64,000 bases of DNA from an uncultured Chloroflexia bacterium (GTDB taxonomy: Bacteria; Chloroflexota; Limnocylindria; QHBO01): the NCBI GenBank assembly GCA_963827475.1, contig CAWHAZ010000004.1, forward strand, positions 96,001 to 160,000. Direction: 5' to 3'. Shown here piece by piece: positions 6,636-35,261 of this stretch (the stretch's first letter is position 1; the number at the start of each line of letters is the position of its first letter). Under the pieces are notes generated by a model that saw only the letters and a program-made list of their open reading frames with translations, had not been told where the DNA came from and made no database searches. The translations under genes and the position numbers were made by a program.

Positions 6636-6638
6636 GGT

Positions 6639-11063: not shown

Positions 11064-11113
11064 TCTCCGCCTCCAGTGGCCGCGATCATAGCCGAGCGTA
11101 CAATGCGGGCCTC

Positions 11114-18738: not shown

Positions 18739-19098
18739 ATGGACCAAACCGGACTGCTCTACGTCCTGGGTTTCGGCTTCGCCGCGACGACCTTCGTCTT
18801 CGGCACGATCATCTTTTCGTGGCTCGTGTCGCACCGGCGCAAGCAGGCCCAGAAGGGGCTGCCCTACGAGTGCGGGATCGACACCATCGGTGACACCTGG
18901 TCCCGCTTCGGACTGGCGTTCTACCTGTACGCCCTGCTGTTCGTCGCCTTCGACGTCGAGATCATCTTCATCTACCTGTGGGCGATCGTGATCCGCGACA
19001 TCGCGGTCAACGGGATCGTGTTGATGGGCATCTTCCTGGTGGTCCTGATGTATGGCGAGTTCTACGCCTGGAGGAAGGGGGACCTGCAGTGGCGGTAG
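18739..19098 (+). CDS. nuoA: NADH-quinone oxidoreductase subunit A
   Basis: PYECG, FYLYALLFVAFDVE, YAWRKGDLQW. Confidence 0.95.
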   Translation: MDQTGLLYVLGFGFAATTFVFGTIIFSWLVSHRRKQAQKGLPYECGIDTIGDTWSRFGLAFYLYALLFVAFDVEIIFIYLWAIVIRDIAVNGIVLMGIFLVVLMYGEFYAWRKGDLQWR

Positions 19099-19790
19099 AG
19101 CAGCCGAAGCGCGCCAAAGCGGCCTCGGTCGCCAAGGCGGCCGCCGACCCCAAGGACGCCCCGCCGCCGAGCACCGCGCTCGCCAAGCCGGAGGCCATCG
19201 TCATCCCCGATCCCACGGGCGACGACGACCTCCTGTCCGAGTTCGGGATGGAGGCCCACCCGCGCGGCGGCTTCCACGGCCTGCTGGAGGTCATCCCGAC
19301 CAGGGCGGACTACATCCTCGACCTGATCCGGGCCAACTCCCTGTGGCCGCTCCTGTCGGGGCTGTCGTGCTGCGCCATCGAGATGATGAGCACCGCCACC
19401 CCGATGAACGACATGGACCGCTTCGGGATGTTTCCGATGCGCGCCTCGCCGCGCCAGGCGGACGTCCTGATCGTGGCCGGCACGCTGACGACCAAGATGG
19501 CCGGCCCCCTCGTCCGGCTGTGGGCACAGATGCCCGAGCCGAAGTGGTGCGTGGCGATGGGCACCTGCACGACCAGCGGCGGGCGCTTCAAGCGCTCGTA
19601 CAGCGTGGTCCAGGGCGTGGACCGGGTCATGCCCGTCGACGTCTACGTGCCGGGCTGCCCGCCCCGCCCCGAGGGCCTGATCTACGGAATGATGAAGCTC
19701 CACGAGCTGGTCAAGCAGCGTCGCGGCCAGTGGGACACGTTCGCCGACCGCGGACCGGAGCTCCGTTCCTGGGAAGGAGACGTCCGCTGA
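19089..19790 (+). CDS. nuoB: NADH-quinone oxidoreductase subunit B
   Basis: SLWP, GLSCCAIEM, RASPRQAD, QMPEPKW, MGTC, VYVPGCPPRPE. Confidence 0.96.
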   Translation: MAVEQPKRAKAASVAKAAADPKDAPPPSTALAKPEAIVIPDPTGDDDLLSEFGMEAHPRGGFHGLLEVIPTRADYILDLIRANSLWPLLSGLSCCAIEMMSTATPMNDMDRFGMFPMRASPRQADVLIVAGTLTTKMAGPLVRLWAQMPEPKWCVAMGTCTTSGGRFKRSYSVVQGVDRVMPVDVYVPGCPPRPEGLIYGMMKLHELVKQRRGQWDTFADRGPELRSWEGDVR

Positions 19791-20365
19791 CCGCTCCCGC
19801 CGCGGCGGGGCCACTCGTCCGGCTGCTCGGTGACAAGCTCGGCGACGCGACGAGCCAGCTGTGGACCGATGAGGACACGGTCGAGGTCCAGGTCCCCGGC
19901 GACAAGATCGTCGAGACCCTTCGGACGCTCCGCGACGACCCCGACTTCGCGTTCTTCTTCCTGGCCGATGCGGCCGCGGTCGACTACGGGGTGGGCGAGC
20001 ACTTCGAGGTCGTCTACCACCTGCACTCCGACAGGCACCCGGTGTGGCTTCGTGTCCGCGTCCCGGTCGACCGCGAGAACCCGCTGACCCCGACCGTCAC
20101 CGGGCTGTGGGAAGGGGCGATGTTCCACGAGCGCGAGATGTACGACATGATGGGCATCGTCTTCCAGGGCAACCGGGACCTGCGCCGGATCTACATGTCG
20201 CCCGACTACCGATCCTTCCCGCAGCGGAAGGATTTCCTGCTCCCCGATGACGCCGCCGACTCCCCGGCTGCCGGCAACATGCCCCTCGAGCGCCCCGAGA
20301 CCTGGGACCTGACCCGGCTCGAGGAAGCGGCCGCCCACCGTGACGAGCCCGGGGGGCCGGTGTGA
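19787..20365 (+). CDS. nuoC: NADH-quinone oxidoreductase subunit C
   Basis: AVDY, FEVVYHL, EREMYDMMGIVF, LRRI, PQRKDF; probable CTG start after AGGAG. Confidence 0.9.
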   Translation: MTAPAAAGPLVRLLGDKLGDATSQLWTDEDTVEVQVPGDKIVETLRTLRDDPDFAFFFLADAAAVDYGVGEHFEVVYHLHSDRHPVWLRVRVPVDRENPLTPTVTGLWEGAMFHEREMYDMMGIVFQGNRDLRRIYMSPDYRSFPQRKDFLLPDDAADSPAAGNMPLERPETWDLTRLEEAAAHRDEPGGPV

Positions 20366-21684
20366 CGACGACGAAGGAACCGCGGGCCCGCAAGCCCCGG
20401 GCCAAGGCTCCGCCGGAGGACGAGGCCGCTCTCCGGGCAGCCGCCGAGGGGCGGATTCCCGACCCGATCGAGCTCGACGCCACGATGACCAGCCCCGCGG
20501 GGACGCGACGCCCGGAGTTCATGGGCTTCGACATCGTCCCGCCGCCCGACCGCCCCCCGCAGACCGAGCGCGAGCGCGAGGTCTACACCCTCGGCGACGG
20601 GGAGATGCTGGTGAACATGGGCCCGCAGCACCCGTCGACCCACGGCGTGATGCGGATCGTGCTCAAGGTCCGCGGCGAGGTCGTCATCGACCTCGACCCG
20701 GTGCTCGGATACCTCCACCGCGGCATCGAGAAGCTGTGCGAGAACGCGACCTACACCACGGTCCTGACCTACGTCGACCCCATGGACTACATGTCGGCGA
20801 TGCACAACGAGCACGCGCCGGCGCTCGCCTTCGAGAAGCTGTACGGGATCAAGGCGCCGCGGCGGGCGGAGTACATCCGGGCCCTGGTGGTGGAGCTGAA
20901 CCGGGTGTTCAGCCACGGCCTGATGATGGGCTTCCTGGCCCTCGACCTCGGCGGCCTGACGCCGATCCTGTACGGGTTCATCAACCGCGACCAGGTCGTG
21001 GACATGCTGTCGGCGATCTCCGGCCAGCGGATGCTGTTCAACTTCTTCCGGGTCGGCGGGGTGAACTTCGACGTGAACGACGAGTTCCTGTCCCGCCTCG
21101 GGAAGTGGCGCGCGGGCGTGCTCGACACGATCGAGATGAACGAGAAGCTGCTCACCGAGAACGAGATCTTCGGGGCCCGGACCAAGAAGATGGGCGTGCT
21201 GACCGGCCAGCAGGCCATCGACCTGGGCGTGTCCGGCCCCAACCTGCGGGCCAGCGGCGTGCCGTTCGACGTCCGCAAGGCCCATCCGTACCCGCCCTAC
21301 CCCGAGCTCGAGTTCGAGGTCATCACCCAGGAAGGCGGCGACACCTACGCGCGGTACATCCAGCGCATCGCGGAGCTGAAGCAGAGCATCCACCTCATCG
21401 ACCAGATCGTCGACCGCATGCCCCACGGCCCGGTCCAGGCCCAGGTGCCGGGCATCATCCGGCCTAGGCCAGGGCGGGCATACGCGGCGGTGGAGTCGCC
21501 CCGGGGGCTGTACAGCGTCTACGCCATCAGCGACGGCGGCCCGAACCCGTATCGGTTCCGCATGCGCGACCCAAGCTTCATCACCCTCCAGGTCATGCCC
21601 AAGGTCATGCCGGGCCGCCTGATCGCCGACACCATGGCGGTGATGGCCAGCCTGGACCCGATCATGGGCGGCGTGGACAAGTAG
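20362..21684 (+). CDS. nuoD: NADH-quinone oxidoreductase subunit D
   Basis: NMGPQHPSTHGV, GYLHRGIEK, GPNLRASG, ESPRG, DPIMGGVDK; no NiFe CxxC motifs, so not a hydrogenase. Confidence 0.96.
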   Translation: MTTTKEPRARKPRAKAPPEDEAALRAAAEGRIPDPIELDATMTSPAGTRRPEFMGFDIVPPPDRPPQTEREREVYTLGDGEMLVNMGPQHPSTHGVMRIVLKVRGEVVIDLDPVLGYLHRGIEKLCENATYTTVLTYVDPMDYMSAMHNEHAPALAFEKLYGIKAPRRAEYIRALVVELNRVFSHGLMMGFLALDLGGLTPILYGFINRDQVVDMLSAISGQRMLFNFFRVGGVNFDVNDEFLSRLGKWRAGVLDTIEMNEKLLTENEIFGARTKKMGVLTGQQAIDLGVSGPNLRASGVPFDVRKAHPYPPYPELEFEVITQEGGDTYARYIQRIAELKQSIHLIDQIVDRMPHGPVQAQVPGIIRPRPGRAYAAVESPRGLYSVYAISDGGPNPYRFRMRDPSFITLQVMPKVMPGRLIADTMAVMASLDPIMGGVDK

Positions 21685-21702: not shown

Positions 21703-22722
21703 ATGGACCAGGGCATGATCGACCTCATCCTTGGCATCGGCCGCTTCGTGGTCGCCACCACCCTGCTCCTGCTGCTCACGGTGCCGACCGCGTTCATCGT
21801 GATCCAGATGGAGATCAAGATCATCGCCCAGATGCAGCTGCGCTACGGCCCGAACCGGGTCGGGCCGCGGGGCATCTTCCAGAGCACGATCCACGGCTTC
21901 AAGTTCCTGGCCAAGGAGGACCAGACCCCGGATCGGGCGGACGTGCCGACGTTCACGCTGGCGCCGTGGATGGTGTTCATGGCCGCCGCCATGAGCCTGC
22001 TGGTCGTTCCCTTCGCGCCCGGCCTGGTGGCGTTCGACTCGCAGATCGGCGTCATCTACTTCTTCGCCGTCATCGGTCTGTCGGTGGTGGGGCTGCTGAT
22101 CGCCGGCTGGGCCAGCTACAACAAGTACTCGCTGCTCGGCGGGCTGCGGAGCGCGGCCCAGATGGTCAGCTATGAGATCCCGCTGACCCTGTCCATCGTG
22201 GGCGTGGTGGTCCTGACCGGGTCGCTGTCGTTCACCGAGATCGTGGAGTGGCAGCGCGAGCACGGGTGGGCGTTCCTGTGGCAGCTGGTCGGCTTCCCGA
22301 TCTTCCTCATTGCCGCCGCGGCGGAGATCAACCGCGCCCCGTTCGACATGATCGAGGCCGACAGCGAGATCGTCGCCGGCCCGTTCACCGAGTACAGCGG
22401 GATGCGGTTCGGGTTCTTCTTCTTCGCCGAGTACGTGGCCCTGTTCATCATGAGCGCCATCCTGGTCACCCTGTTCCTGGGCGGCTACCTCGCGCCGTGG
22501 CCGTTCCCCGCCACCCTCGACGGCTTCGTCGGAACCCTGTACGGCCTGTTCTGGTTCTTCGTGAAGACGTACTTCTTCGTCTTCGTCGCGGTCTGGGTGC
22601 GGGCCACCCTGCCGCGGGTCCGGGTTGACCAGCTGATGGGCGCGTCGTGGAAGGTGCTGCTCCCGCTGGCCCTCGTCAACCTGTTCCTCACGGCCATCGT
22701 CGTTCTCGCCCTCAACCTGTAA
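21703..22722 (+). CDS. nuoH: NADH-quinone oxidoreductase subunit H
   Basis: RYGPNRVG, NKYSLLGGLRSAAQMVSYE, AEINRAPFD, EYSG, RATLPRVR. Confidence 0.96.
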   Translation: MDQGMIDLILGIGRFVVATTLLLLLTVPTAFIVIQMEIKIIAQMQLRYGPNRVGPRGIFQSTIHGFKFLAKEDQTPDRADVPTFTLAPWMVFMAAAMSLLVVPFAPGLVAFDSQIGVIYFFAVIGLSVVGLLIAGWASYNKYSLLGGLRSAAQMVSYEIPLTLSIVGVVVLTGSLSFTEIVEWQREHGWAFLWQLVGFPIFLIAAAAEINRAPFDMIEADSEIVAGPFTEYSGMRFGFFFFAEYVALFIMSAILVTLFLGGYLAPWPFPATLDGFVGTLYGLFWFFVKTYFFVFVAVWVRATLPRVRVDQLMGASWKVLLPLALVNLFLTAIVVLALNL

Positions 22723-22732
22723 GGTTCGACCC

Positions 22733-23575
22733 ATGGCGATACCGGGCTCGGGCATGCTCACCGGCATGGGGGTGACCCTGCGGAACCTGTTCCGGCCCAA
22801 GGTGACGCTGCAGTACCCCGAGGAGCGGCCGCACATCCCCGACCGCTGGCGCGGGCGCCTGGACCTCATCTACGACCCGTTCGGCGAGCACAAATGCGAG
22901 GTCTGCTTCCAGTGCGCCCAGGTCTGCCCGGTCGAGGCCATCGACATGAGCGGGTTCGACAGCGAGGGCAACCGGATCCGATACGGCCTGCCGGAGATCT
23001 ACGACGAGCGGAAGGACCCCAATGCCTACCGTCGGGCCGGCCTGCCCGCTCGCCCGGAGCGCAACGCGGCCCGCTGGCAGGAGGACGTGGACAACGCCTG
23101 GGTCGACTCGGTGATCGACGGCTTCGGCGGCCGGCCCGAGTCGCTGGTCGCGATCTTCGGCGCGGTCCAGGCGAAGTACGGATACCTCCCCGAGCCGGCG
23201 TTGCGCCGGATCAGCGACCGGATGACGATCCACTGGGCCCAGGTCTTCGGCGCCGCCGGCCTGGGCGGGTTCCGGCTCCTGCCCGCCGAGGGCCACCTCG
23301 TGACCGTCTGCTCGTGCGCCGCCTGCCGCTTCGCCGGCGGGGACAGGCTCCTCGCCGCGCTCGAGGAGGAGCTCGGCATCCGGGCGGGCGAGGTGACCGA
23401 TGACGGGTCGTTCACCCTGGAGACCGATGCGAACGTGGGGTCGGGCGCGATCGCGCCGGCGGTCCGCATCGACACCCTGGTCTACGGGCCGCTCTCGGTG
23501 GACGAGGCGCGTCACCTGATCTACGCCCGCCGGGCCGAGGCAAGCCCAGCCGCCTCCGCCCCGGCCCGGGCCTGA
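22733..23575 (+). CDS. fusion of NuoI N-terminal half (one CxxCxxCxxxCP) to a degenerate NuoE/HydC thioredoxin-like domain
   Basis: VTLQYPEE..RWRG..CEVCFQCAQVCPVEAI, then VQAKYGYLP, VCSCAAC, LGIRAGEVTDDGSFTL, AP..YG. Confidence 0.85.
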   Translation: MAIPGSGMLTGMGVTLRNLFRPKVTLQYPEERPHIPDRWRGRLDLIYDPFGEHKCEVCFQCAQVCPVEAIDMSGFDSEGNRIRYGLPEIYDERKDPNAYRRAGLPARPERNAARWQEDVDNAWVDSVIDGFGGRPESLVAIFGAVQAKYGYLPEPALRRISDRMTIHWAQVFGAAGLGGFRLLPAEGHLVTVCSCAACRFAGGDRLLAALEEELGIRAGEVTDDGSFTLETDANVGSGAIAPAVRIDTLVYGPLSVDEARHLIYARRAEASPAASAPARA

Positions 23576-24939
23576 TGGCGGTCACCCTCTCCCCCCAGAT
23601 CCGGATCCTGGACGGGGGGCAGCAACGCCTCCTGAAGGGCATCGGGACCCTGGATCCCGGGTCGCTCGCCGCGTATCGCAAGGCCGGTGGCTACAAGGGT
23701 CTGACCCGGGCGGTGACCCAGCGGTCGCCGGACGAGGTCATCGGCGAGATGGCAGCCGCGCGTCTGCGGGGACGGGGTGGCGCCGGCTTCCCGGTCGCGG
23801 ACAAGTGGCGAGCCGCCCGATCGGCACCCGGCGACCGCAAGATCGTGGTCGCCAACCTGATGGGCGCCGACCCCACGTCCCTCGGCGACCGGACGCTGGC
23901 CGAGGGCAACCCGCATCTCGTCCTCGAGGGGGCGCTGATCGCCGCTGCCGCCGTCGGCGCCAGCGAGGCGATTCTCGCCGTCCGCCGCGACTGGACGCTG
24001 GCCATCGAGCGCCTGCGCGCCGCGGTGGCGGACGCGGAAGCGGCCCACCTGGCCGGCTACCTCATCCTCGGCACGGACGTCTCGGTATCGGTATCGGTCT
24101 GGGAAGGCTCCGGTGCCTACGTCGCCGGGGAGGAGACGGCCCTCATCCACGCCCTCCAGGGTGACCGCGGCATGCCGCTCATCCGGCCGCCCTACCCGGC
24201 CGAGCGCGGCCTGTGGGACGTGCCAACGGTCATCCACAACGCCGAGACGCTCGCCCACGTGGCCTGGATCGCCGGCCACTCGGCTGCGGAGTTCACGAAG
24301 GCCGGGACCGAGGCGGCGCCGGGCACCAAGCTGGTGACCGTCGCGGGTGCGGTGACGACGCCGGGCGTGGCCGAGGTGGCGCTGGGAACATCGGTCGAGA
24401 AGGTCATCAGCCTGGCTGGAGGCTCGACGGGGACGGTCAAGGCCGCGTTCATCGGCGGCCCCGGGGCTGGCGCCCTCGCCGCCGACGAGCTGTCCGCCAC
24501 CGCCTACGCGTACGACGAGCTGGCGGAGGTCGGCGGCCACATCGGCTCGGGAACGGTGCTGGTCACCGACGCCGGCACCTGCATGGTGGCCACCGCCCGC
24601 TTCCTGCTCGACTTCTCGGCCCGCGAGGCGTGCGGCAAGGCCGTTCCCTGCCGCATCGGCACCCGCCGCCTGGTAGAGGCCCTCGACCGGATCCTGGCCG
24701 CGACCCCACGCCCCAATGACCTGGTCCTGCTCCGCGAGCTGTCGGCGAAGATCGCGGACACCGCCCTGTGCCGCCTGGAATCGCTCGCTCCGCGGCCGAT
24801 GCTCACGACCCTCGATCGGTTCGCCGACGAGTACCGCGCCCACGCCGAACGCGGGGTGTGCCTCGCCGGCTCGTGCTCGACCGATGCGGTCCTGCCGCTG
24901 CTGACCCCGCTGGCCGAAGCCGTAGGATTGGACCGATGA
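23575..24939 (+). CDS. nuoF: NuoF/HydB-family flavoprotein subunit, degenerate
   Basis: LRGRGGAGFP, GNPHLVLEG, GAYVAGEETAL, PPYPAERGLW, EACGKAVPCRIG, FADEYRAH..CLAGSC; TGATG-coupled. Confidence 0.85.
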   Translation: MAVTLSPQIRILDGGQQRLLKGIGTLDPGSLAAYRKAGGYKGLTRAVTQRSPDEVIGEMAAARLRGRGGAGFPVADKWRAARSAPGDRKIVVANLMGADPTSLGDRTLAEGNPHLVLEGALIAAAAVGASEAILAVRRDWTLAIERLRAAVADAEAAHLAGYLILGTDVSVSVSVWEGSGAYVAGEETALIHALQGDRGMPLIRPPYPAERGLWDVPTVIHNAETLAHVAWIAGHSAAEFTKAGTEAAPGTKLVTVAGAVTTPGVAEVALGTSVEKVISLAGGSTGTVKAAFIGGPGAGALAADELSATAYAYDELAEVGGHIGSGTVLVTDAGTCMVATARFLLDFSAREACGKAVPCRIGTRRLVEALDRILAATPRPNDLVLLRELSAKIADTALCRLESLAPRPMLTTLDRFADEYRAHAERGVCLAGSCSTDAVLPLLTPLAEAVGLDR

Positions 24940-27320
24940 CCTTCGTCGGCAACGGCAATGGCAAGGGCAACGGCAAGGGCGCCGAGCACATGGAGGACTA
25001 CGCGCCGATCTGGCCGGTCGTCCCCGGCACCCGACCGATCACGGTCACGATCAACGGCCGCCAGGTCCAGGCCGAGGAGGGGCAGACCATCCTCCAGGCC
25101 TGCCGGGTGTTGGACATCGAGATCCCGACCCTGTGCTACGAGCCGAAGCTCTCGCCCTACGGGGCCTGCCGCATCTGCGTGGTCGAGGTCGAGGGCGAGG
25201 AGAACACGCCGATCTCGTGCGGGACGAAGGTCGCGGACGGGATGGTCATCACCACCCACTCGGAGCGGGTCATCGAAAACCGCCGCCTGGTGCTGGAGCT
25301 GATCTTCTCGGACCACGACGCGTACTGCCTGCCGCCGTGCCAGTTCAAGTGCCCGACCCGGGTCGACATCCCCGGCTACCTGAAGGCCAACGCGGAGGGC
25401 AACTGGGAAGAGGCGACCCGGATCCTGAAGCGGTCCCTGCCCTTCCCGGCCATCCTCGGCCGGGTCTGCCCCGCCCCGTGCGAGACCCACTGCCGGCGCG
25501 AGGAGGTCGACATCGCGATCGCCATCCGCGACTCGCATCGCTACTGCGCCGACCGCGTGCTCGAAGTCGACGCGCCAGCCCCCCTGCCGTGGCCGAAGGA
25601 GCCGCCCACCGGGCGGCGGGTCGCGGTGGTGGGCTCCGGACCGGCCGGGATGACGGTCGCGTACTACCTCCAGCTCCGCGGCCACCAGTGCGACGTGTTC
25701 GAGGCCGACCCGGAGCAGGGCGGCATGCTGCGCTACGGAATTCCCGAGTACCGCCTGCCGAAGGCGTGGATGGACCGCGAGCTGAACCACGTCTGGGAGC
25801 TGGGCGCCACGTTCCGGCCGAACATGCGGCTCGGGCGCGACTTCCACCTCGCGGACCTGCTCGACCAGGGCTACGACGCGGTGTTCGTGGGCACGGGCTG
25901 CTACAAGTCGAACGAGCTGGGCATCCCCAACGAGTTCGCGGACGGGACGGTCAACGCCCTCGAGAACCTCTACAACAGCACCCGCGGCGTCCCCGTCCCG
26001 CAGCTGAAGGGGGCGCGAGTGGTGGTCATCGGCGGTGGGTTCACCGCCATCGACTGCACACGGACCTCGCTCCGCCAGGGCGCGGAGGCGGTCACCATCG
26101 TCTATCGCCGCGACCTGAAGGACATGCCGTCGCAGGACGAGGTCCACGAGGCGATCGAAGAGGGCGCGACGGTCATCTTCCAGGCCGCACCGGTCCGCAT
26201 CGTGACCGACGCCAAGGGTCGGGTGACCGGGGTCGAGTTCCAGAAGATGCACCTCGGCGAGCCCGACGAGAAGGGTCGCCGCCGGCCGGAGCCGATGCCC
26301 GGCACCGAGTTCATCGTCGAGTGCGACACCGTGCTGGGGGCCATCGGCCAGGGTCCGGAGCTGAGCTGGGTCGACCTCGAGCCGGACGAGATCCGCGGCG
26401 GGCTGGAGGTCAGCCGCCAGGGTCGCCTGGTCGCCGACCCGAACACCTTCCGCACCGGCGTCCCTCAGGTTTTTGCCGCCGGCGACGTGAACCTCGGCGC
26501 CACGACCGTGGTCGAGGCCATCGGTGACGGCCGCCGCGCCTCGTATGCGATGGACTACTGGCTCCGTGGCCACGACCTCGATGACCCGCAGGTCCGCCGC
26601 ATCGTGTCCGAGCCCCAGCCCTCGTTCCTGACCATCGTGCCCTTCACCGACGACGTGAAGGAGCCCCAGGCGGTGATGGGCAAGAAGGGGCCGGAGGAGC
26701 GGAGCGACAACTTCGGGGAGTACGAGTACGGCTACACCCACGACCAGGCGATGGGCGAGGCGGCCCGCTGCCTGCAGTGCACGTGCGAGGCGATCGGCCA
26801 CTGCGACCTCCGCGAGGCGGCGATCGAGTACGAGACCACGCTGAACATGGCGATCGACGAGCGGTCGATCCAGGACAACCCGTACGTCGGCATCAACCAC
26901 GGCTACGGCCGGGACGAGACCCACTCGTTCATCCTCCGCGACTACAGCCGGTGCATCGACTGCGGCCGCTGCGCCCAGGTGTGCAAGGACATCGTGGGCG
27001 CCGGCTGCTACGACTTCATCGGCAAGGGCTTCGACTCATTGGTCACCACCGCGGACTTCGTCTCGCTGAACGAGACGCCGTGCGTGTCGTGCGGTCGGTG
27101 CGCGGAGACGTGCCCGGTCGGGGCCCTCATGCCGCGGCCGCGGATCCTGGAGACCTATCAGCTCGACGTCAGCCGCTGCATCTTCTGCGGCATCTGCGCC
27201 GACGCCTGCCCGTACGACGCGCTGCGCTGCGGCCCCGAGTTCGAGTTCAGCGAGTACCAGCGCGATCTGCCGATGCTCGACATCCTCGAGATGTCCGACC
27301 GGGAGCGGCCCACCCGCTAG
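24936..27320 (+). CDS. NuoG/HydA-type Fe-S module with inserted GltD/SudA/NfnB-like FAD-NAD(P)H domain and C-terminal NuoI half
   Basis: [2Fe-2S] IPTLC..GACRICVVE..SC; HDAYC; PCQFKCP; LGRVCPAPCE; GSGPAG; GGMLRYGIPEYRLP; GGGFTA; VYRR; AGD; EAARCLQC; CIDCGRCAQVC; CVSCGRCAETCP; YQLDVSRCIFCGICADACPYDAL..EFE. Confidence 0.88.
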   Translation: MTFVGNGNGKGNGKGAEHMEDYAPIWPVVPGTRPITVTINGRQVQAEEGQTILQACRVLDIEIPTLCYEPKLSPYGACRICVVEVEGEENTPISCGTKVADGMVITTHSERVIENRRLVLELIFSDHDAYCLPPCQFKCPTRVDIPGYLKANAEGNWEEATRILKRSLPFPAILGRVCPAPCETHCRREEVDIAIAIRDSHRYCADRVLEVDAPAPLPWPKEPPTGRRVAVVGSGPAGMTVAYYLQLRGHQCDVFEADPEQGGMLRYGIPEYRLPKAWMDRELNHVWELGATFRPNMRLGRDFHLADLLDQGYDAVFVGTGCYKSNELGIPNEFADGTVNALENLYNSTRGVPVPQLKGARVVVIGGGFTAIDCTRTSLRQGAEAVTIVYRRDLKDMPSQDEVHEAIEEGATVIFQAAPVRIVTDAKGRVTGVEFQKMHLGEPDEKGRRRPEPMPGTEFIVECDTVLGAIGQGPELSWVDLEPDEIRGGLEVSRQGRLVADPNTFRTGVPQVFAAGDVNLGATTVVEAIGDGRRASYAMDYWLRGHDLDDPQVRRIVSEPQPSFLTIVPFTDDVKEPQAVMGKKGPEERSDNFGEYEYGYTHDQAMGEAARCLQCTCEAIGHCDLREAAIEYETTLNMAIDERSIQDNPYVGINHGYGRDETHSFILRDYSRCIDCGRCAQVCKDIVGAGCYDFIGKGFDSLVTTADFVSLNETPCVSCGRCAETCPVGALMPRPRILETYQLDVSRCIFCGICADACPYDALRCGPEFEFSEYQRDLPMLDILEMSDRERPTR

Positions 27321-27766
27321 CCCGCGTCCGCGGCGCTCCGGGACGGTGTCGCGCGGTTGAACCCGAAGCGGAGGAGCCGGAACAGCAGGTAGCCGATCAG
27401 CGCGCCAACGACGTTCAGGAGGACGTCGTCCACGTCGGTCATCCGGTTCGGGATCCGCAGCTGGGCGAGCTCGATCGCGACGCTGAGCACGACCGCCACC
27501 AGCAGGACTCGGGCCCACCCGTTCATCGCCGGGAACGCGATCGGTCCGAGCAGACCGACCGGGAGCAGGAGCAGGAGGTTCCCGATCAGCTGGCCGGCCC
27601 AGAACGGGGACTCGAGGTTGTCGAGGTAGACCTGGATCGTCCGGAACAGGACGAAGTTGTCATCCACGATGAAGCCAGGCGGCGGTTCCACGGGCTGCAG
27701 GGTCATGAGCAGTCCAAGGGCCAACCACGCCGCCAGGAGCACGCCGGCGGTCACACGGGCAGTCAT
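27317..27766 (-). CDS. VanZ-family membrane protein
   Basis: GNLLLLLPVG, SVAIELAQ, RMTDVDDVLLNVVGA. Confidence 0.88.
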   Translation of the reverse strand: MTARVTAGVLLAAWLALGLLMTLQPVEPPPGFIVDDNFVLFRTIQVYLDNLESPFWAGQLIGNLLLLLPVGLLGPIAFPAMNGWARVLLVAVVLSVAIELAQLRIPNRMTDVDDVLLNVVGALIGYLLFRLLRFGFNRATPSRSAADAG

Positions 27767-27837
27767 CGGCCGCCCAGTCTGTCAGCCCCGGCGGTTTTCT
27801 GCCGATGCGGGGCGCCGGGCGGTATCCTCGGCGGCGC

Positions 27838-29113: not shown

Positions 29114-29656
29114 GTGAGCGCTCAGCCCGAACGGAGAGTCTCGGCTCTGGACATCTCGATCGTCCTCTTCGTGGTGCTCGCCGTCGGCGTCCTCGGCGGT
29201 GGCCTGGCGGCCGTGCTCCTGCGGAACGTCATTCATTCCGCGGTGGCCATGATGTTCTGCTTCGGCGCGCTCGCCGGGACCTACGCGCTGCTTGGCGCAC
29301 CGATCGTGGCGGCGGCACAGGTCCTGATCTACCTCGGCGCGATCAGCGTCCTGATCCTGTTCGCGATCATGCTCACCCAGGCTGGCGACGCGAACCTGCC
29401 CGCCCCATTCCAGCGCCAGGCGCCGGTGGCGGCGCTGGTCGCGCTCGGGATCGTGTTCCTTGTCGGCTGGGCCATCGTCAGCACCGACTGGCCGAACGCC
29501 ACCGTCGTGATCGCGGTTGACCTCAACAAGCTGGCGACCGCCATCTTCACCGACTACGCCCTGCCCTTCGAGATCGTGGCCTTCCTGCTGCTGGCCGCGA
29601 TCATCGGCGCCATCTACCTGGCCCGACGGCCCGAAGAAGACGAGCGGGCGAACTGA
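29114..29656 (+). CDS. nuoJ: NADH-quinone oxidoreductase subunit J
   Basis: RNVIHSA, AQVLIYLGAISVLILFAIML, YALPFEI; candidate own promoter TAGAAT at 29082. Confidence 0.94.
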   Translation: MSAQPERRVSALDISIVLFVVLAVGVLGGGLAAVLLRNVIHSAVAMMFCFGALAGTYALLGAPIVAAAQVLIYLGAISVLILFAIMLTQAGDANLPAPFQRQAPVAALVALGIVFLVGWAIVSTDWPNATVVIAVDLNKLATAIFTDYALPFEIVAFLLLAAIIGAIYLARRPEEDERAN

Positions 29657-29659
29657 CCG

Positions 29660-29968
29660 ATGGGCCTGCCCGCGTACCTGTTCCTCTCCCTGCTCCTGTT
29701 CGGGATCGGAGCCTTTGGGTTCCTCGCCCGGCGCAACGCGATCATGATGCTGATCTGCATCGAGTTGATGCTGAACGCGGTGAACCTCGCCCTCGTCGCG
29801 TTCAACGCGTTCGACTACGGCGCGACGAATGACGCGGGCGCGGTCTTCTCCCTCCTGATCATGGCCGTCGCCGCGGCCGAGGCGACGGTGGGGCTGGCGC
29901 TGGTCATCGCCATCATCCGGACCCGTCAGACCCCCGAGGTCGACGAGTACTCCGACCTCAAGGAGTGA
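29660..29968 (+). CDS. nuoK: NADH-quinone oxidoreductase subunit K
   Basis: RRNAI, IELMLNAVNL, VAAAEATVGLA. Confidence 0.96.
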   Translation: MGLPAYLFLSLLLFGIGAFGFLARRNAIMMLICIELMLNAVNLALVAFNAFDYGATNDAGAVFSLLIMAVAAAEATVGLALVIAIIRTRQTPEVDEYSDLKE

Positions 29969-29972
29969 TGCC

Positions 29973-32210
29973 CTGACACCGGAGCAGCTCATCCCACTCA
30001 TCCCGGCCCTGCCGCTCGTCGGCTTCCTGTTCGCGGTCCTCCTCGGGTCGCGTCTCGACCGCATTCCCGAGCACGGTGACCACGGGGATGGGCACGGAGC
30101 GGGGGCCGGCCACGACACCGGCGGAGACCCGCACGCGTCGCACGACGAGGCGGTGGACGAGTCCGCGTTCCGCACGATCCCGACCGAGGAGGAACAGCGC
30201 GAGACCTCGCCCCACCGGGGCCACGCCGACGACCTGGCCAACGCCAACGGGGCAGATGGGGTCATCCCGGACGAGCTGAACGACGGACGGGGCCAGCCCG
30301 GCCACGTCTCCCCGGGCGGGCCGCGACCGGTCTACCGCTCGTGGTGGGTCCCCGTGGCCCTTGTCGCGCTCATGTGGGCCGCGGCCATGGTCGTGTTCGG
30401 ATCGGTCATCTTCGACGGTGCCGAGTACCGGGTCACCGTCTACGAGTGGATCGTGTCCGGCGACTTCCGGGTCGAGATCACGTTCTTCGTCGACGCGCTC
30501 ACCGCGGTCCTGCTCCTGGTCGTCAGCACGGTCGGCCTCCTCGTCCACGTCTACTCCATCGGCTACATGGACGGCGACCGGAGCGTGTGGCGCTTCTTCG
30601 CCTACCTGAACCTGTTCATGTTCAGCATGCTGCTGCTGATCCTGGCCGACAATTTCCTGCTGCTGTACGTCGGCTGGGAAGCGGTGGGCCTGTGCTCGTA
30701 CCTGCTCATCGGCTACTGGTACAAGAAGCCCTCGGCCGCCGGGGCCGCCAAGAAGGCGTTCATCGTCAACCGGGTTGGCGACTTCGGATTCGGGCTCGGC
30801 GTGATCCTGATCTGGACGTTGCTCGGCACCCTCGCGTTCGAGGAGGTGTTCGCCGGTGTCGGCGGGCTGGAGGAGTGGCAGGTCACGCTCATCGCGCTGC
30901 TCCTGTTCGCGGGCGCGGTCGGCAAGTCCGCCCAGTTCCCGCTCCACGTCTGGCTTCCCGACGCGATGGAGGGGCCGACCCCGGTCAGCGCCCTGATCCA
31001 CGCCGCGACGATGGTCAACGCCGGCGTCTACCTGGTGGCGCGCTCGAACCCGATCTTCGCCGAGGCCCCGACCGCCATGGCGGTGGTCGCGGCCATCGGT
31101 GTCTTCACCGCCGTCCTGGCCGCGGCCATCGCGCTGACTCAGAACGACATCAAGAAGGTCCTCGCCTACTCGACCGTGAGCCAGCTGGCATACATGTTCT
31201 TCGGGCTGGGCATCGGGGCGTGGGTGGCGGCCATCTTCCACCTGCTGGCCCATGGCTTCTTCAAGGGCCTGCTGTTCATGGCGTCGGGATCGGTCATCCA
31301 TGGCGCCGGCGGCGAGCAGGACATGCAGCTCATGGGCGGGCTGCGGGAAAAGATGCGCTGGACCTACGTGACCATGGTCATCGGGTCGCTGGCCCTGGCC
31401 GGCATCCCGATCTTTGCCGGGTTCTTCAGCAAGGACGAGATCCTGTCGGAGGCGTTCCTGCGCGGCTACGGGGTCTACTGGCTGATCGGGATCGTCGTCG
31501 CGTTCATGACCGCGTTCTACACGTTCCGGATGATCTACCTCACCTTCCACCGATCCTGGCGCGGCCCGGCCGAGGCGTGGCACCACGTCCACGAGAGCGG
31601 ATGGACGATGGTCGTCCCGCTGGTCATCCTGGCCGTGCCCACCGCCCTGGCCGGCCTCCTGCTCGGCATTCCGCCCGAGAGTGGGGCCATCCACACCTGG
31701 CTCGAGGAGGTCTTCGCCGGAGCCGAGGCACTGGGAACGGGCATCCTCCCCGGCTCTATCGCCGCCGAGGCGCTCGAGCATGGTGAAGCCCACGCATTCG
31801 AGCTCTTCGGGCTCGGCGGCCTGCTGCTCCTCGTCGGCGCGGGCATGGGGGTCGGCGGCATCCTGCTCGCCCGCCGCTGGTACGTCCAGAACCCGGAGGC
31901 ACCGGTCCGCTTCGTCGAGCGCATCCCGTTCGGCCTGGGGCCGGGCATGTACCGCGCCAGCGTGAACAAGTACTACTTCGACGACCTGTACCAGCTCCTG
32001 TTCGCGCGGGGCGGCGTCCTCGTCTCGAACATGCTGTGGTGGTTCGACGTCAAGGTCATCGACGGGTTCGTCAACGGCACGGGCTCGGTAGCGGAGTGGA
32101 TCGGCGGGATCCTCCGCCGCCTCCAGACCGGGCGGGTCCAGAACTACGGGCTGGGCATCGCGGCCGGCCTGGTGATCGTCCTGCTGGTCTACGCCACGGT
32201 GGTCCGCTGA
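29973..32210 (+). CDS. nuoL: NADH-quinone oxidoreductase subunit L with long His/acidic insertion after TM1
   Basis: Frame is open back to LTPEQLIPLIPALPLVGFL (TM1); YSIGYM, GWEAVG, NRVGD, GKSAQFPLHVWLPDAMEGPTPVSALIHAATMV, DIKKVLAYST, LQTGRVQNY. Start is CTG 29973 or ATG 29968 with a lost C. Confidence 0.93.
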   Translation: MTPEQLIPLIPALPLVGFLFAVLLGSRLDRIPEHGDHGDGHGAGAGHDTGGDPHASHDEAVDESAFRTIPTEEEQRETSPHRGHADDLANANGADGVIPDELNDGRGQPGHVSPGGPRPVYRSWWVPVALVALMWAAAMVVFGSVIFDGAEYRVTVYEWIVSGDFRVEITFFVDALTAVLLLVVSTVGLLVHVYSIGYMDGDRSVWRFFAYLNLFMFSMLLLILADNFLLLYVGWEAVGLCSYLLIGYWYKKPSAAGAAKKAFIVNRVGDFGFGLGVILIWTLLGTLAFEEVFAGVGGLEEWQVTLIALLLFAGAVGKSAQFPLHVWLPDAMEGPTPVSALIHAATMVNAGVYLVARSNPIFAEAPTAMAVVAAIGVFTAVLAAAIALTQNDIKKVLAYSTVSQLAYMFFGLGIGAWVAAIFHLLAHGFFKGLLFMASGSVIHGAGGEQDMQLMGGLREKMRWTYVTMVIGSLALAGIPIFAGFFSKDEILSEAFLRGYGVYWLIGIVVAFMTAFYTFRMIYLTFHRSWRGPAEAWHHVHESGWTMVVPLVILAVPTALAGLLLGIPPESGAIHTWLEEVFAGAEALGTGILPGSIAAEALEHGEAHAFELFGLGGLLLLVGAGMGVGGILLARRWYVQNPEAPVRFVERIPFGLGPGMYRASVNKYYFDDLYQLLFARGGVLVSNMLWWFDVKVIDGFVNGTGSVAEWIGGILRRLQTGRVQNYGLGIAAGLVIVLLVYATVVR

Positions 32211-33751
32211 TGAGCGGCATCGACACCAGCGGCTTGCCCGTGCTGTCGCTGATCGTGTTCACCCCGCTCATCGGGGTCGCAGCGCTGCTGCTGATCCCCG
32301 GGCGGCGCCATCGGCTGATCCGCTGGGTGGCCCTCCTGGCGGCCCTCGCCAGCCTCGGCTTCAGCCTGCTCCTGCTCGGCTACGACCCGGCTGGTCCGGA
32401 GTTCCAGTTCCGCGAGGACATCCCGTGGATCGACGCCTTTGGCATCCGCTACACGCTCGGGGTGGACGGGATGAGCGCGGTCCTGATCCTGCTCACCACC
32501 GTCCTGAGCGTGGTCGCGATCCTCTACTCCTGGGACCCCATCCAGAACCGGATCAAGGAGTACTACGCCGCGATGCTGCTCCTGATGACCGGCATGCTCG
32601 GCGTGTTCGTCGCCCTCGACCTGTTCGTGTTCTACGTCTTCTGGGAGCTGAGCCTGATCCCGATGTACCTGGTCATCGGGATCTGGGGTGGGCCGAACCG
32701 GATCTACGCCACGGTCAAGTTCGTCATCTACACCCTGGTCGGCTCGCTGCTCATGCTGGTGGCCATCCTGGCCGTGGTCATCGCCCACGCCAACCTCGCG
32801 GGCGGGACGTTCACGTTCAGCTACGAGGCCCTGCGGGGCGTGCCGTACCCCGACCTCCTGCAGGCCGCGGCGTTCATCGCATTCGGCCTGGCGTTCGCCA
32901 TCAAGGTCCCCATGTGGCCGTTCCACACCTGGCTGCCCGATGCCCACGTCGAGGCGCCGACCGCCGGCTCGATCATCCTGGCCGGCGTCCTGCTCAAGCT
33001 CGGCGGCTACGGCTTCCTGCGGTTCTCCATCCCCCTGCTGCCCGACGCGGCCGCCAGCTTCGCGCCGATCATGATCGGCCTGGCGCTGATTGCGATCCTG
33101 TATGGGGCGCTGGTGGCCATGGTCCAGCCCGACCTCAAGAAGCTCATCGCCTACTCGAGCGTGTCGCACATGGGCTTCGTCATCCTCGGGGCGTTCGTCT
33201 TCAACCAGCAGGGGATGCAGGGGGCCATCTTCCAGATGGTCAGCCACGGGATCACGACCGGGGCCCTGTTCCTCCTGGTCGGGGTGATCTACGAGCGCAC
33301 CCACGATCGGATGATCGCCCACATGGGCGGGCTGAACGCCCGCCTGCCGGCCTACGCCGCCCTGTTCGGGCTGTTCACCTTCGCGTCCATCGGCTTGCCG
33401 GGGCTGGCCGGGTTCGTGGGCGAGTTCCTCGTCATGCTGGGAGCGTTCCAGTACTCGGGCTGGGTCGCGGCCTGGGCGATGCTGGTGGTCATCGCCAGTG
33501 CGGTCTACATGCTCTGGATGTTCCAGCGGGCGTTCTTCGCCGTCCCGTCGGACTGGATGCGACGGGCATGGAACGGCCTCCACGACCTGACCCGGATCGA
33601 GTGGCTGTCGCTCGCCCCGCTGGTCATCCTGGTCGTCGCCCTCGGCGTCTTCCCGATGCCGGTGCTGGAGGCCACCGCCGCCCCGGTGGAGCGGATACTC
33701 GACGTGGTGCAGTCGGCCGGCGGCCTGGACGCGGTGGCCTGGCCATGGTGA
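32210..33751 (+). CDS. nuoM: NADH-quinone oxidoreductase subunit M
   Basis: LGVDG, FWELSLIPMY, KVPMWPFHTWLPDAHVEAPT, LLKLG, AYSSVSHMG, GFVGEF; single copy. Confidence 0.96.
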   Translation: MSGIDTSGLPVLSLIVFTPLIGVAALLLIPGRRHRLIRWVALLAALASLGFSLLLLGYDPAGPEFQFREDIPWIDAFGIRYTLGVDGMSAVLILLTTVLSVVAILYSWDPIQNRIKEYYAAMLLLMTGMLGVFVALDLFVFYVFWELSLIPMYLVIGIWGGPNRIYATVKFVIYTLVGSLLMLVAILAVVIAHANLAGGTFTFSYEALRGVPYPDLLQAAAFIAFGLAFAIKVPMWPFHTWLPDAHVEAPTAGSIILAGVLLKLGGYGFLRFSIPLLPDAAASFAPIMIGLALIAILYGALVAMVQPDLKKLIAYSSVSHMGFVILGAFVFNQQGMQGAIFQMVSHGITTGALFLLVGVIYERTHDRMIAHMGGLNARLPAYAALFGLFTFASIGLPGLAGFVGEFLVMLGAFQYSGWVAAWAMLVVIASAVYMLWMFQRAFFAVPSDWMRRAWNGLHDLTRIEWLSLAPLVILVVALGVFPMPVLEATAAPVERILDVVQSAGGLDAVAWPW

Positions 33752-33779: not shown

Positions 33780-35261
33780 ATGAACGACCCGGCGAACCTG
33801 TTCCCGCTGCTCCCCGAGCTGGCGCTCGCCATCTCGATCCTGGTCGTCATCACCGTCGACCTGTTCCTGCCCCGCGAGCGGAAGTGGCTGCTGACCCCCA
33901 TCACCGCCCTCGGCCTGCTCGCCACTGCGGCCGCCATCGGGGTTGTGTGGAGCTCCCCTCCGGGCGCGGCCCTGGCCGGGATCTACACCGTCGACGAGCT
34001 TGCCCTGGTGCTCAAGCTGGCCGCGGTTGGCATCGGTCTGTTGTCCACCCTCTTCTCGCCGGGGTACCTCGTCGTCCGCCGCCTGCCCCTGGGCGAGTTC
34101 AACGCGATCCTCCTGTTCTCGACCCTCGGCATCTTCGTTCTGGCCAGCAGCGCGGACCTCATCACCCTGTTCCTCGGCCTGGAGCTGATGGTCATGCCGG
34201 CGTACCTCCTGGCCGCGTTCCACAAGACCGATCGGTTCAGCAACGAGGGCGGGTTGAAGTACTTCCTCCTCGGCTCGTTCGCCAGCGCCATCCTCCTGTT
34301 CGGGGTGGCGTGGACCTACGGCCTGACCGGGACGACCATCTTCAGCGAGATCGCGGAGGTCTTCGCCGGCGGCCTGATGAACGGGGCTGTGCTGGTGGCC
34401 CTCGCCTTCCTGACCGTGGGCGCGACCTTCAAGGTGGCCGCCGTCCCATTCCACTTCTGGACGCCGGACGCCTACCAGGGCGCCCCGACGCCGATCACCG
34501 GCTTCCTGTCTGTCGGCCCCAAGCTCGGCGCCTTTGCGCTGCTCCTCCGCCTGTTCGGCGAGGCGCTCGGCCCGCTTCGCGCCGACTGGCTCGACGTGTT
34601 CGTGATCCTGGCCGTGGTGACCATGACCTTCGGCAACGTCGTGGCCCTGACCCAGACCAACGTCAAGCGGATGCTCGCCTACTCGTCGATCGCCCACACC
34701 GGGTACATCCTGGCCGGGCTGGCCGCCTACGCGGCCGCGCCCACCGAGGCGATCGCGGTGCAGGCCGTGGAAGCGGTGGTCTTCTACCTGGTCGGCTACT
34801 CGGTCATGAACATCGCCGCCTTCGCTGTGGTCGGCATGCTCCAGCGTGACGTCCGCCGCTATGGTGGGCTGGCCTCGTTCGCCGGCCTCGCCTCCCGGCA
34901 GCCGGCCCTGGCCGCGGCCATGACCATCCTGCTCCTGTCACTGACCGGCATCCCGCCGACCGTCGGGTTCTTCGCCAAGCTCTACATCCTGCTGGCCACG
35001 GTCGATTCGGGGCTGGTGTGGCTGGCGATCGCCATCGCCCTCAACGCAGCCCTCGCCGCGTTCTACTACCTGCGGGTGGTGGTCTACATGTACATGCGCG
35101 ACCCGGAGGCGGAGCCGGCGGAAGTCGAGCGGTCCGGGGTCGGACGGCTGGCCCTCGTCCTGAGCGTGGCCGGCGTGATCCTGCTCGGCATCTTCCCCGG
35201 CTTCCTGCTCGGCTGGCTGCCGACCGAGTGGCTGACCGTGGGCCAGGGCATGCTCCGTTGA
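33780..35261 (+). CDS. nuoN: NADH-quinone oxidoreductase subunit N
   Basis: EGGLKYFLLG, FKVAAVPFHFWTPDAYQGAP, KRMLAYSSIAH, GIPPTVGFFAK, FYYLRVV. Confidence 0.96.
   Translation: MNDPANLFPLLPELALAISILVVITVDLFLPRERKWLLTPITALGLLATAAAIGVVWSSPPGAALAGIYTVDELALVLKLAAVGIGLLSTLFSPGYLVVRRLPLGEFNAILLFSTLGIFVLASSADLITLFLGLELMVMPAYLLAAFHKTDRFSNEGGLKYFLLGSFASAILLFGVAWTYGLTGTTIFSEIAEVFAGGLMNGAVLVALAFLTVGATFKVAAVPFHFWTPDAYQGAPTPITGFLSVGPKLGAFALLLRLFGEALGPLRADWLDVFVILAVVTMTFGNVVALTQTNVKRMLAYSSIAHTGYILAGLAAYAAAPTEAIAVQAVEAVVFYLVGYSVMNIAAFAVVGMLQRDVRRYGGLASFAGLASRQPALAAAMTILLLSLTGIPPTVGFFAKLYILLATVDSGLVWLAIAIALNAALAAFYYLRVVVYMYMRDPEAEPAEVERSGVGRLALVLSVAGVILLGIFPGFLLGWLPTEWLTVGQGMLR

Follow-up and report, generated by a model that had tools for sequence, protein, structure and literature searches.

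An Nfn/Stn-like module in a split nuoI as the candidate NADPH input of complex I in Limnocylindria

In the prevailing view, the NADH module of complex I derives from a soluble flavoprotein that was recruited to it. Membrane complexes with a complete core, named Nuo-Bfu and Mbh-Bfu, have been predicted in a survey of the Bfu family (Schut et al. 2022, PMC9304861). The bifurcation site of Nfn is described as a flavobicluster, B1-FMN-C1 (FMN, flavin mononucleotide), with the path FAD-A7-A6-A3-A2-A1-B1 (FAD, flavin adenine dinucleotide; PMC11829005), and in Stn the side branch to an inactive FdhF-like domain is termed a non-functional remnant (PMC10482914). Here we analyze a complex I (nuo) operon on the + strand of a 64,000-nucleotide stretch of DNA (the window) from an uncultured Chloroflexota bacterium of the class Limnocylindria (GenBank assembly GCA_963827475.1, contig CAWHAZ010000004.1, positions 96,001 to 160,000), in which a module resembling NfnABC and StnABC sits inside a split nuoI, and in which the NuoE/NfnC-like domain (E) and the NuoF/NfnB-like subunit (F) carry altered flavin-loop and iron-sulfur (Fe-S) cluster motifs. 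For the phylum at large, many Chloroflexi are described as having 13 of the 14 complex I subunits and lacking only NuoG (PMC4453560), and a gltD-related protein in place of NuoI has been noted in mbx-like operons (PMC4758237). A literature search, with subscription journals and bioRxiv supplements outside its reach, found no published description of the Limnocylindria enzyme.

The module and its split NuoI

The operon spans 18.7-35.3 kb of the window (GC content ~70%). All nuo genes from A to N are whole open reading frames (ORFs) with Pfam matches, I being present as two halves, and the core set of the quinone (Q) and proton-pumping (P) modules (nuoA, B, C, D, H, I, J, K, L, M and N; 11 subunits) is complete. 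By sequence, E, F and the third protein of the module are a cut-down NfnABC/StnABC (Bfu-type) module inside the split nuoI, and not NuoEFG, a descent argued from best matches and from the tree. Among solved chains F matches NfnB (9bov_B) with an E-value of 1.1e-113, StnB (8oh5_B) with 2.2e-112 and Thermus Nqo1 with 1.9e-73, and the closest solved relative of E is NfnC (9bov_C, E-value 1.1e-23). In a FastTree phylogeny of 181 F sequences (Shimodaira-Hasegawa-like support, midpoint root), all degenerate forms of F fall into one clade of 43 rows with a support of 95, in which the f2-type is basal; throughout, f1 denotes the family of the window and f2, f3 and f4 other families of the class. An AlphaFold model of F (predicted local distance difference test, pLDDT, 89.4; predicted template modeling score, pTM, 0.89) has its closest fold in 9bov_B (template modeling score, TM, 0.90; root-mean-square deviation 1.4 A), and its comparison with Thermus, Aquifex and mycobacterial NuoF (TM 0.83-0.86) confirms the overall NuoF fold; pLDDT dips at residues 181-210 and 351-360, which are not interpretable in a cofactor-free model. 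The original prediction had taken the C-terminal H..C....C of F as the mark of a HydB/HndC-type origin; best matches and the fold match to NfnB bear out the Bfu origin, with the amendments that the type is specifically NfnABC/StnABC and that the module lies inside a split nuoI, which the prediction had not seen.

The Bfu family as defined in PMC9304861 has a BfuB with clusters B1-B5 and FMN and a BfuC with cluster C1. F lacks the N-terminal domain and also the C-terminal 2x[4Fe-4S] domain, and the B1 and C1 ligand sets are incomplete; B1 corresponds to cluster N3 of complex I and C1 to the NuoE-type cluster, and all three parts of the B1-FMN-C1 site are altered here. In profile searches F reaches 319.3 bits against the NCBIfam NuoF equivalog TIGR01959 (cut-off 558.65), and E passes the Pfam PF01257 cut-off (84 bits) and fails that of NCBIfam nuoE_fam (58.4 versus 142.4). 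F is the sole Complex1_51K match in the source genome, an assembly of 7 contigs with 90% completeness. The f3 genomes (L041 = G036 C3, and others) also hold, at other loci, canonical Bfu-type E-F-G sets with intact NADE and N3 motifs (rows L026, L029 and L030), so that in some class members the eroded copy exists beside working relatives; the source genome, which is small, holds the eroded F copy only.

The third protein is encoded by an ORF of 795 amino acids (aa) at 24933-27320 that ends after the C-terminal half of NuoI (9bov_A has 1178 aa). It follows the NfnA/StnC domain plan of a [2Fe-2S] domain, an inserted GltD with two [4Fe-4S] clusters and a 2x[4Fe-4S] domain: an N-terminal [2Fe-2S] motif lies at 25131-25220, a GltD-like FAD/NADPH domain at ~25338-26612 with VYRR at 26100-26111, a CxxCxCx5C motif at 26769-26804 and the 2x[4Fe-4S] domain at 26952-27116. 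It aligns with NfnA 9bov_A over residues 34-759 (E-value 9e-169), GltD insertion included and Cys motifs conserved, and lacks the C-terminal Fdh-like (molybdopterin-fold) domain of the NfnA/StnC type. The motifs GSGPAG (FAD), GGGFTAIDC (second Rossmann fold) and YRR match five NADPH-dependent solved relatives and are, like the Cys of this protein, invariant in 28 class sequences. A candidate lost Cys in the GltD domain (CPtrvdI versus CPahtdC of 9bov_A) was rejected, as archaeal NfnA, Thermotoga maritima NfnB and Pyrococcus furiosus NfnI also have Val or Ile there. A second GltD-like flavoprotein, a 657-aa ORF whose C-terminal 2x[4Fe-4S] domain weakly matches NuoI profiles, is encoded outside the window on contig C4 of the source genome (30041-33820).

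The two NuoI halves cover the profile TIGR01971 (121 positions) in a complementary way, positions 1-73 falling on the start of the E fusion (E-value 1.8e-16, 60.4 bits) and positions 71-112 on the end of the GltD protein (window 27141-27266; E-value 1.7e-12, 47.6 bits; NCBIfam NuoI there corresponds to residues 737-778); the N-terminal half aligns to TYKY/NuoI chains at residues 8-79. Instead of a NuoI with both CxxCxxCxxxCP motifs on one chain and a score above the TIGR01971 cut-off of 113.05 bits, the locus has the halves on two ORFs, and a profile search of the 90% complete source genome found no whole NuoI. A complex prediction for the N-terminal half (residues 1-105) with the C-terminal half (residues 736-795) and two [4Fe-4S] clusters scored 0.27 against a mark of 0.32 and counts neither way.

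This split-NuoI layout occurs across the class Limnocylindria. The order A-B-C-D-H-[I_N-E]-F-[G-GltD-I_C]-J..N was found in nine of 12 fetched loci, from families f1, f3 and f4, one of the nine (L035, an f1 genus) having no J-N matches within the fetched stretch; of the further loci, one from f2 has B, D and the module only and one is a paralog. In L042 (G025, family f2; 6376-12621) a separate operon, B-D-[I_N-truncated E]-F-[G-GltD-I_C] with the N3 Cys of F intact, lies among phosphatase and transglutaminase genes, and nuoA, C, H and J-N are absent from the 19.5 kb fetched around it. When 401 genomes were sampled from the phylum, each of the 44 class matches listed was found to start at or before residue 3 of the fusion and to continue into the E part. 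Outside the class, among the matches listed, only the E part is matched, three matches starting at residue 51 and containing stop codons; 345 further matches lie beyond those listed, and the unpublished genomes G177, G255 and G370 were counted in this tally only. In L038, L039 and L043 (family f3) the nuoH match falls into two pieces with a gap of ~200 bases (query residues ~275-280), which suggests an insertion in NuoH.

Altered flavin and cluster motifs across the class

The ORFs of F and of the E fusion are both uninterrupted, and the motif states that the original prediction had read from them (VCSCAAC and NVGSG in E; an altered NADE loop, CGKAVPC and the GCC codon at 24640 in F) were all found on the + strand where it had placed them. 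The flavin/NADH loop of F, NLMGADPTSLGDR at 23854-23892, aligns to 'nadegdpgafmdr' of 9bov_B and reads N-L-M-G-A-D-P-T where the closest solved relatives have N-A-D-E-G-D-P-G. The N3 motif, EACGKAVPCRIG at 24625-24660 (C-G-K-A-V-P-C, with the Ala codon GCC at 24640-24642), aligns to 'esCgkCtyCrvg', leaving a ligand set of Cys353, Ala356, Cys359 and Cys399, that is, three of four Cys; the fourth N3 Cys is present in ALCRLE at 24763-24780 (Cys399, Glu402), as is the C-terminal H..CLAGSC at 24859-24876. Among 112 diverse canonical NuoF/HydB-type representatives, 66 positions are conserved in at least 90%; F keeps 56 of them and deviates at 10 (residues 97, 101, 139, 221, 223, 236, 298, 352, 356 and 402), mostly in the flavin/NADH loops and the N3 motif. 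In E the first Cys pair is kept (VCSCAAC at 23306-23326; CSCAAC 23309-23326) and the second is replaced by NVGSG at 23432-23446, where NfnC, HydC and NuoE have C...C: the query 'danvgsgaiap' stands against 'vaclgccslap' of Caldicellulosiruptor saccharolyticus NfnC (9bov_C), with both second-pair Cys lost, and the first pair aligns with 'qCqgtaC'. E therefore has two of the four Cys of the canonical Cx4C...Cx3C ligand set of NuoE/HydC/NfnC.

These states are fixed, and not recent decay. A search of 41 related genomes gave full or partial orthologs in 38, and all nineteen same-family rows aligned, from seven genera, share the loop and N3 changes; rows L014 and L016 of that alignment come from the unpublished genomes G016 and G021, and the result is independent of both. 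Searching named public genomes with the GltD protein as query gave 245 encoding stretches, of which 80 were kept, almost all labeled Candidatus Limnocylindria or Chloroflexota metagenome-assembled genomes (MAGs); F was at least 90% complete in 67 of these loci and the E fusion in 65, and with the window added the counts are 68 F and 62 E sequences. EACGKA(V/I)PCRIG, the altered NADE loop and ALCxLE are each present in 68/68 F orthologs; Glu97 of the acidic loop, found in 100% of the 112 canonical representatives, is G, A or S in all 68; and Cys is absent from the second pair of E in all 62. The alignment of orthologs thus returned the same substitutions throughout the set, and the close relatives with canonical motifs that would have spoken for recent decay were not seen, the changes being class-wide. 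A few public MAGs have a stop or a garbled stretch in the E fusion (L078:930-1724; L080, L061, L104 and L098) or in G (L074), which may be assembly frameshifts or real breaks; these loci were left out of the counts.

Beyond the family, the erosion is, by sequence comparison, stepwise and graded. In 25 non-f1 genomes of the class the first acidic loop residue (the Asp of NADE) is replaced in all, as it is in all 26 sequences of this comparison. Three of the 25 (L138, L039 and L042) keep Cys356, and the other 22 have Thr or Ser instead; damage to the Gly-rich loop is seen in two of 22 readable non-f1 sequences (L140 and L134), and NNVET and GEETAL also drift in the other families. Within f1 the GxGAY segment beside the flavin varies (for example GSTSL or GPLAL), with Tyr182 replaced by Leu or Met in many sequences, and the N3 motif is invariant. 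A library of 1.84 billion representatives gave 15,318 matches, and within the best 150 of these the replacement of Cys356 by Ala or Ser is limited to five clusters with Limnocylindria-type motifs; clusters whose public names were looked up are called NuoF or SLBB-domain protein of Chloroflexota.

E and F are under purifying selection, about twofold looser than that on GltD. The ratio of nonsynonymous to synonymous substitution rates (dN/dS), taken as the median of pairwise Nei-Gojobori estimates over 400 random pairs of 51 loci, is 0.285 for E, 0.309 for the whole of F, 0.265 for its flavin domain and 0.166 for its 4Fe-4S domain; it is 0.187, 0.156 and 0.047 for the [2Fe-2S] domain, GltD and the ferredoxin domain of the third protein, and 0.176 and 0.073 for the N- and C-terminal halves of NuoI, the ranking being more trustworthy than the values because dS is uncertain at a third-position GC content of ~95%.

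The metal sites of E and F look remodeled and not empty. At position 402, three residues past the fourth N3 Cys, 97% of the canonical representatives have Gly; in the class, Glu402 accompanies the loss of Cys356 in 90/90 sequences (68 from f1 and 22 others), and Gly402 is found in the 3/3 that keep Cys356. The tree places the group with an intact N3 as sister to the other f3/f4 sequences, with f1 apart, and the residue that took the place of Cys356 is Ala in f1 but Thr or Ser in f3/f4; from this placement and these different replacements, the paired loss of Cys356 and gain of Glu402 probably arose twice, a reversal also being possible. The pattern points to an altered-ligand N3 cluster, either a [4Fe-4S] cluster held by three Cys and a Glu or a [3Fe-4S] cluster, and CxxAxxC is a classic [3Fe-4S] site pattern. 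In E, where relatives have Cx4C, a middle Cys has been gained, and the resulting CxCxxC is kept in 62/62 f1 sequences and in 15/15 f3/f4 sequences that bear the domain, the latter all having His at the former second-pair site; at the fourth ligand position the f1 sequences vary (D, E, N, S or G). In 10 of the 25 non-f1 genomes E has lost its whole cluster domain, which is hence dispensable, and the genomes that have both this domain and an intact N3 (n=2) also retain one Cys of the second pair. Of the original prediction's description of N1a and N3 as vestigial or repurposed, "vestigial" is too simple for three N3 Cys with Glu402 and a CxCxxC in E.

Table 1. Complex I genes and module parts in the window.
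Feature	Position	Strand	Matches and motifs
nuoA	18739..19098	+	Pfam Oxidored_q4, E-value 9.8e-32
nuoB	19200..19790 (start approximate)	+	Pfam Oxidored_q6, E-value 7.4e-28; translation with LSCCAIEM, KWCVAMGTC, PGCPP
nuoC	19862..20365 (start approximate)	+	Pfam Complex1_30kDa, E-value 8.3e-36; placed by tblastn
nuoD	20362..21684	+	Pfam Complex1_49kDa, E-value 1.7e-81; GPQHPSTHG, GYLHRG
nuoH	21703..22722	+	Pfam NADHdh, E-value 4.2e-111
NuoI N-terminal half (first part of fusion ORF 22733-23575)	22733..23032	+	One CxxCxxCxxxCP at 22895-22930; TIGR01971
NuoE/NfnC-like domain (second part of fusion ORF 22733-23575)	23057..23575	+	Pfam 2Fe-2S_thioredx, E-value 1.2e-23
NuoF/NfnB-like subunit	23575..24939	+	Pfam Complex1_51K, SLBB, NADH_4Fe-4S, all above cut-offs
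NfnA/StnC-like part (third module protein)	24933..27137	+	Pfam Fer2_4, Fer4_20, Pyr_redox_2, Fer4
NuoI C-terminal half (fused to end of GltD ORF)	27138..27320	+	CIFCGICADACP at 27177-27212; EFEFSEY at 27237-27257
nuoJ	29114..29656	+	Pfam Oxidored_q3, E-value 8.6e-34
nuoK	29660..29968	+	Pfam Oxidored_q2, E-value 1.2e-25
nuoL	30153..32210	+	Pfam Proton_antipo_M, Proton_antipo_N
nuoM	32036..33751 (true start probably later than 32036)	+	Pfam Proton_antipo_M, E-value 2.9e-77
nuoN	33780..35261	+	Pfam Proton_antipo_M, E-value 3.4e-72

The Cys of the three NuoB motifs in Table 1 we take to be the ligands of cluster N2, and HPSTHG and GYLHRG of NuoD presumably mark its His/Tyr region. Frameshifts in nuoB and nuoC, considered on account of long overlapping ORFs, were rejected, the overlaps being spurious ORFs of the kind usual at 70% GC. 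In one rhizosphere study, four RNA libraries yielded contigs covering E and F at 95-99% identity (for example 23230-23491, 23724-24009, 24166-24943 and 24473-25103), a weak hint of expression; differences in contig depth, such as the low cover at 27384-27877, were not used, as contigs cannot rank genes and the libraries may contain DNA.

Between the GltD fusion and nuoJ (27317-29084) lie three unrelated genes, a VanZ-like gene (- strand), a PAS-domain gene and a metallo-beta-lactamase-fold gene. The PAS and metallo-beta-lactamase genes were at the same spot in 3/3 other genomes of the genus checked and VanZ in 2/3; all three were absent from it in the other genera checked, two f1 genera having 1.5-1.9 kb of other sequence there, and in families f3 and f4 nuoJ follows the GltD fusion almost directly. 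Elsewhere in the window, the - strand carries a 1532-aa ORF at 49202-53800 with a coding-like third-position GC (GC3) of 0.93.

Electron input and the fate of the flavin branch

Our best reading, which we consider rather more probable than its competitors taken together, places the entry of NADPH at the GltD domain, with E and F persisting mainly as a scaffold. The proposed input through the GltD-like domain, already suggested in the original prediction, is plausible in that the FAD/NADPH motifs and YRR are intact and GltD has a dN/dS of 0.156. As a mechanism, we propose that a Limnocylindria ancestor spliced an NfnABC/StnABC-type module into nuoI of an 11-subunit-type complex I. NADPH would be oxidized at the FAD of the GltD-like domain, and the electrons would pass via the [4Fe-4S] clusters of the third protein to the 2x[4Fe-4S] NuoI fold rebuilt from two halves, and from there to N2 in NuoB and to quinone. 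The Fdh-like side, dead in Stn, would have been taken over by NuoI and the pump as the live path, with the F/E branch as the remnant. The acidic residues of the F loop and the canonical ligands of N3 (B1) and N1a (C1) may have been lost because reduction of NAD+ and ferredoxin was no longer needed, and E and F may have been retained under weaker constraint because they pack on the GltD protein at its [2Fe-2S] domain and E bears half of NuoI, their metal sites having been re-ligated instead of emptied. The account in full, namely a proton-pumping complex I running on NADPH, with an Nfn/Stn transhydrogenase spliced into NuoI, the dead Fdh branch rewired to the quinone module, B1-FMN-C1 turned into a re-ligated Fe-S appendix and the N3 Cys-to-Glu swap made probably twice, we hold only tentatively, as a little less probable than its negation.

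Several observations weigh against NADPH entry with E and F as scaffold. The 56 of 66 near-universal residues that F keeps are seemingly more than a pure scaffold needs, and the Gly-rich loop LRGRGGxG(F/Y), Lys77, Trp78, Asn94, Glu186/Glu187, GEET and Asn222 are invariant in the 68 f1 sequences. The [2Fe-2S] domain toward F is strongly conserved (dN/dS 0.187, four Cys invariant), the three Cys of N3 are invariant too, and the branch toward F may still carry electrons. The NADPH specificity is argued from a single motif, YRR, shared with homologs; the selection estimates are simple pairwise Nei-Gojobori values at a GC3 of ~95%, where dS is unreliable; and loci whose match contained a stop (four for E, one for G) were removed before counting. 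Lastly, no type II NADH dehydrogenase (NDH-2) was found: the NDH2_C profile has no match in the source genome, although this profile detects only three of 14 reference genomes, and none of the eight Pyr_redox_2 matches in the source genome is NDH-2-like. An organism without an NADH:quinone route would be odd, and F may for this reason still oxidize NADH. In favor of our reading, PntB is present in the source genome, so that NADH and NADPH would be interconvertible and NADH could feed in via NADPH.

It is mainly this missing route that tempers our confidence in our best reading and leaves some room for the most serious alternative, in our judgment unlikely, in which F is still a working flavoprotein whose altered loop binds FMN or another flavin differently and oxidizes NADH, the enzyme taking or coupling NADH at F and NADPH at GltD. 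The invariant loop and active-site residues just listed are what such a protein would keep, as are the A1 [2Fe-2S] cluster and the three N3 Cys, both invariant, and neither an NDH-2 nor another NuoF was found in the source genome. Set against this, the acidic pair of the loop has become Met-Gly, where the Glu is present in 100% of 112 canonical sequences, and the first acidic residue is replaced class-wide; GxGAY varies even within f1, Tyr182 often being Leu or Met; the Gly-rich loop, NNVET and GEETAL drift in the other families; F evolves about twice as fast as GltD; and it reaches 319 bits where the NuoF cut-off is 558.65. We infer from these changes that F has lost FMN binding and NADH function. 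The earlier claim of a lost NADH site is accordingly upheld for the acidic loop residues, which are replaced, and has to be softened for the flavin, since the Gly-rich phosphate loop and GEET are invariant.

Somewhat less likely again is a role for E and F as repurposed redox parts, with a [4Fe-4S] cluster held by three N3 Cys and Glu402, or a [3Fe-4S] cluster, plus a three-Cys site in E, acting as a higher-potential side store or a partner port, for example in electron buffering that limits oxygen radicals in an aerobe. In its favor are the strict pairing at positions 356 and 402 (Cys with Gly in three sequences, non-Cys with Glu in 90), changed together probably twice, the CxxAxxC pattern, the CxCxxC of E with its His in f3/f4 and the tighter constraint on the 4Fe-4S domain of F (dN/dS 0.166) than on its flavin domain (0.265). 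The deletion of the E cluster domain in 10 of 25 other class genomes speaks for dispensability instead; the fourth ligand position of E in f1 is unconserved, no partner gene is conserved beside the module and the proximity of Glu402 to the cluster is putative; moreover, the related sequences are not independent, so that the covariation comes down to about two events.

It is improbable that the complex runs mainly in reverse, the proton-motive force pushing electrons from quinol to NADP+ at GltD so as to make NADPH: complex I is reversible in principle and the YRR motif is of the NADPH type, but PntB already offers a proton-motive-force-driven route to NADPH, the small source genome has no second complex I, nor was another NADH:quinone enzyme found in it, and the operon indicates no quinol-generating partner. 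Recent decay, a pseudogene state or an assembly error in one genome can be dismissed, for although the assembly has 7 contigs and 90% completeness, identical states recur in 68/68 F and 62/62 E orthologs from independent assemblies, both ORFs are intact with dN/dS well below 1, and RNA-library contigs carry the same region.

If NADPH does enter at GltD with E and F as scaffold, the whole class would present a second, independent recruitment of an input module, with its steps still visible: a transhydrogenase in a split NuoI, a graded loss of the flavin site and two clusters re-ligated. The class would then show, as a natural experiment, which flavobicluster residues of Bfu enzymes are important and what becomes of an unused bifurcation site, and the reading predicts an NADPH-driven proton pump. 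Limnocylindria are common in soil and fresh water, and the public names of these proteins, NuoF or 'NADH-quinone oxidoreductase subunit F', mean that metabolic models of these bacteria probably assume the wrong substrate, which is a warning for annotation of NuoF-named proteins in such abundant organisms.

Relation to known systems

The nearest described relatives are the NfnABC enzymes of C. saccharolyticus (9BOV/9BP5; PMC11829005) and Thermococcus sibiricus (9N5U/9N5V), which provide the module's best sequence and fold matches, E corresponding to NfnC, F to NfnB and the third protein to NfnA. Unlike NfnB, F spans residues 105-527 of the 584 of 9bov_B, without either terminal cluster domain; there are changes in the FMN loop, at one Cys of B1 and at both second-pair Cys of C1; where NfnA has its Fdh-like domain, the third protein has the C-terminal half of NuoI, and the NfnC counterpart bears the N-terminal half. 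Whereas NfnABC is soluble, the module here is found inside the operon of a membrane complex I. StnABC of Sporomusa ovata (8OH5/8OH9), as described in PMC10482914, shares the domain plan (E-values 2.2e-112 for F and 9.2e-148 for the GltD protein) and has one live Fe-S branch and one remnant branch, as we suggest for the module here; the two branches appear to be swapped, however, Stn using the FMN core with its FdhF side dead.

The Nuo-Bfu and Mbh-Bfu complexes predicted in PMC9304861 likewise have a Bfu-type ABC module in the middle of a complex I- or Mbh-like cluster, replacing NuoEFG as the input. As that paper describes them, those complexes possess the full six-cluster BfuBC core, with a proposed confurcation of NADH and ferredoxin, in contrast to the Nfn-type A subunit, the stripped and eroded BC core and the split NuoI found here. 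Since the survey required a ferredoxin domain in BfuB, the Limnocylindria module would have escaped it.

Compared with canonical NuoE/F/G (Thermus Nqo2/Nqo1/Nqo3 and Aquifex NuoEF), the module has the same folds and occupies the same operon slot between the Q-module and membrane genes, but identities are 31-36% (E-value 1e-73), the NADE acidic pair is missing, three of four N3 Cys and two of four N1a Cys remain, and the NCBIfam cut-offs for NuoF, NuoE and NuoG are all missed; the third protein lacks the C-terminal domain of NuoG and has a GltD domain instead. There are precedents for parts of this picture in N1a and N7, off-pathway Fe-S clusters of canonical complex I whose retention serves stability and not the main electron path, and in the complex I of Campylobacter and Helicobacter, in which NuoE/F are replaced. 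What appears to set the Limnocylindria complex apart from these cases is that a whole flavin site has been sidelined and a new module fused into NuoI.

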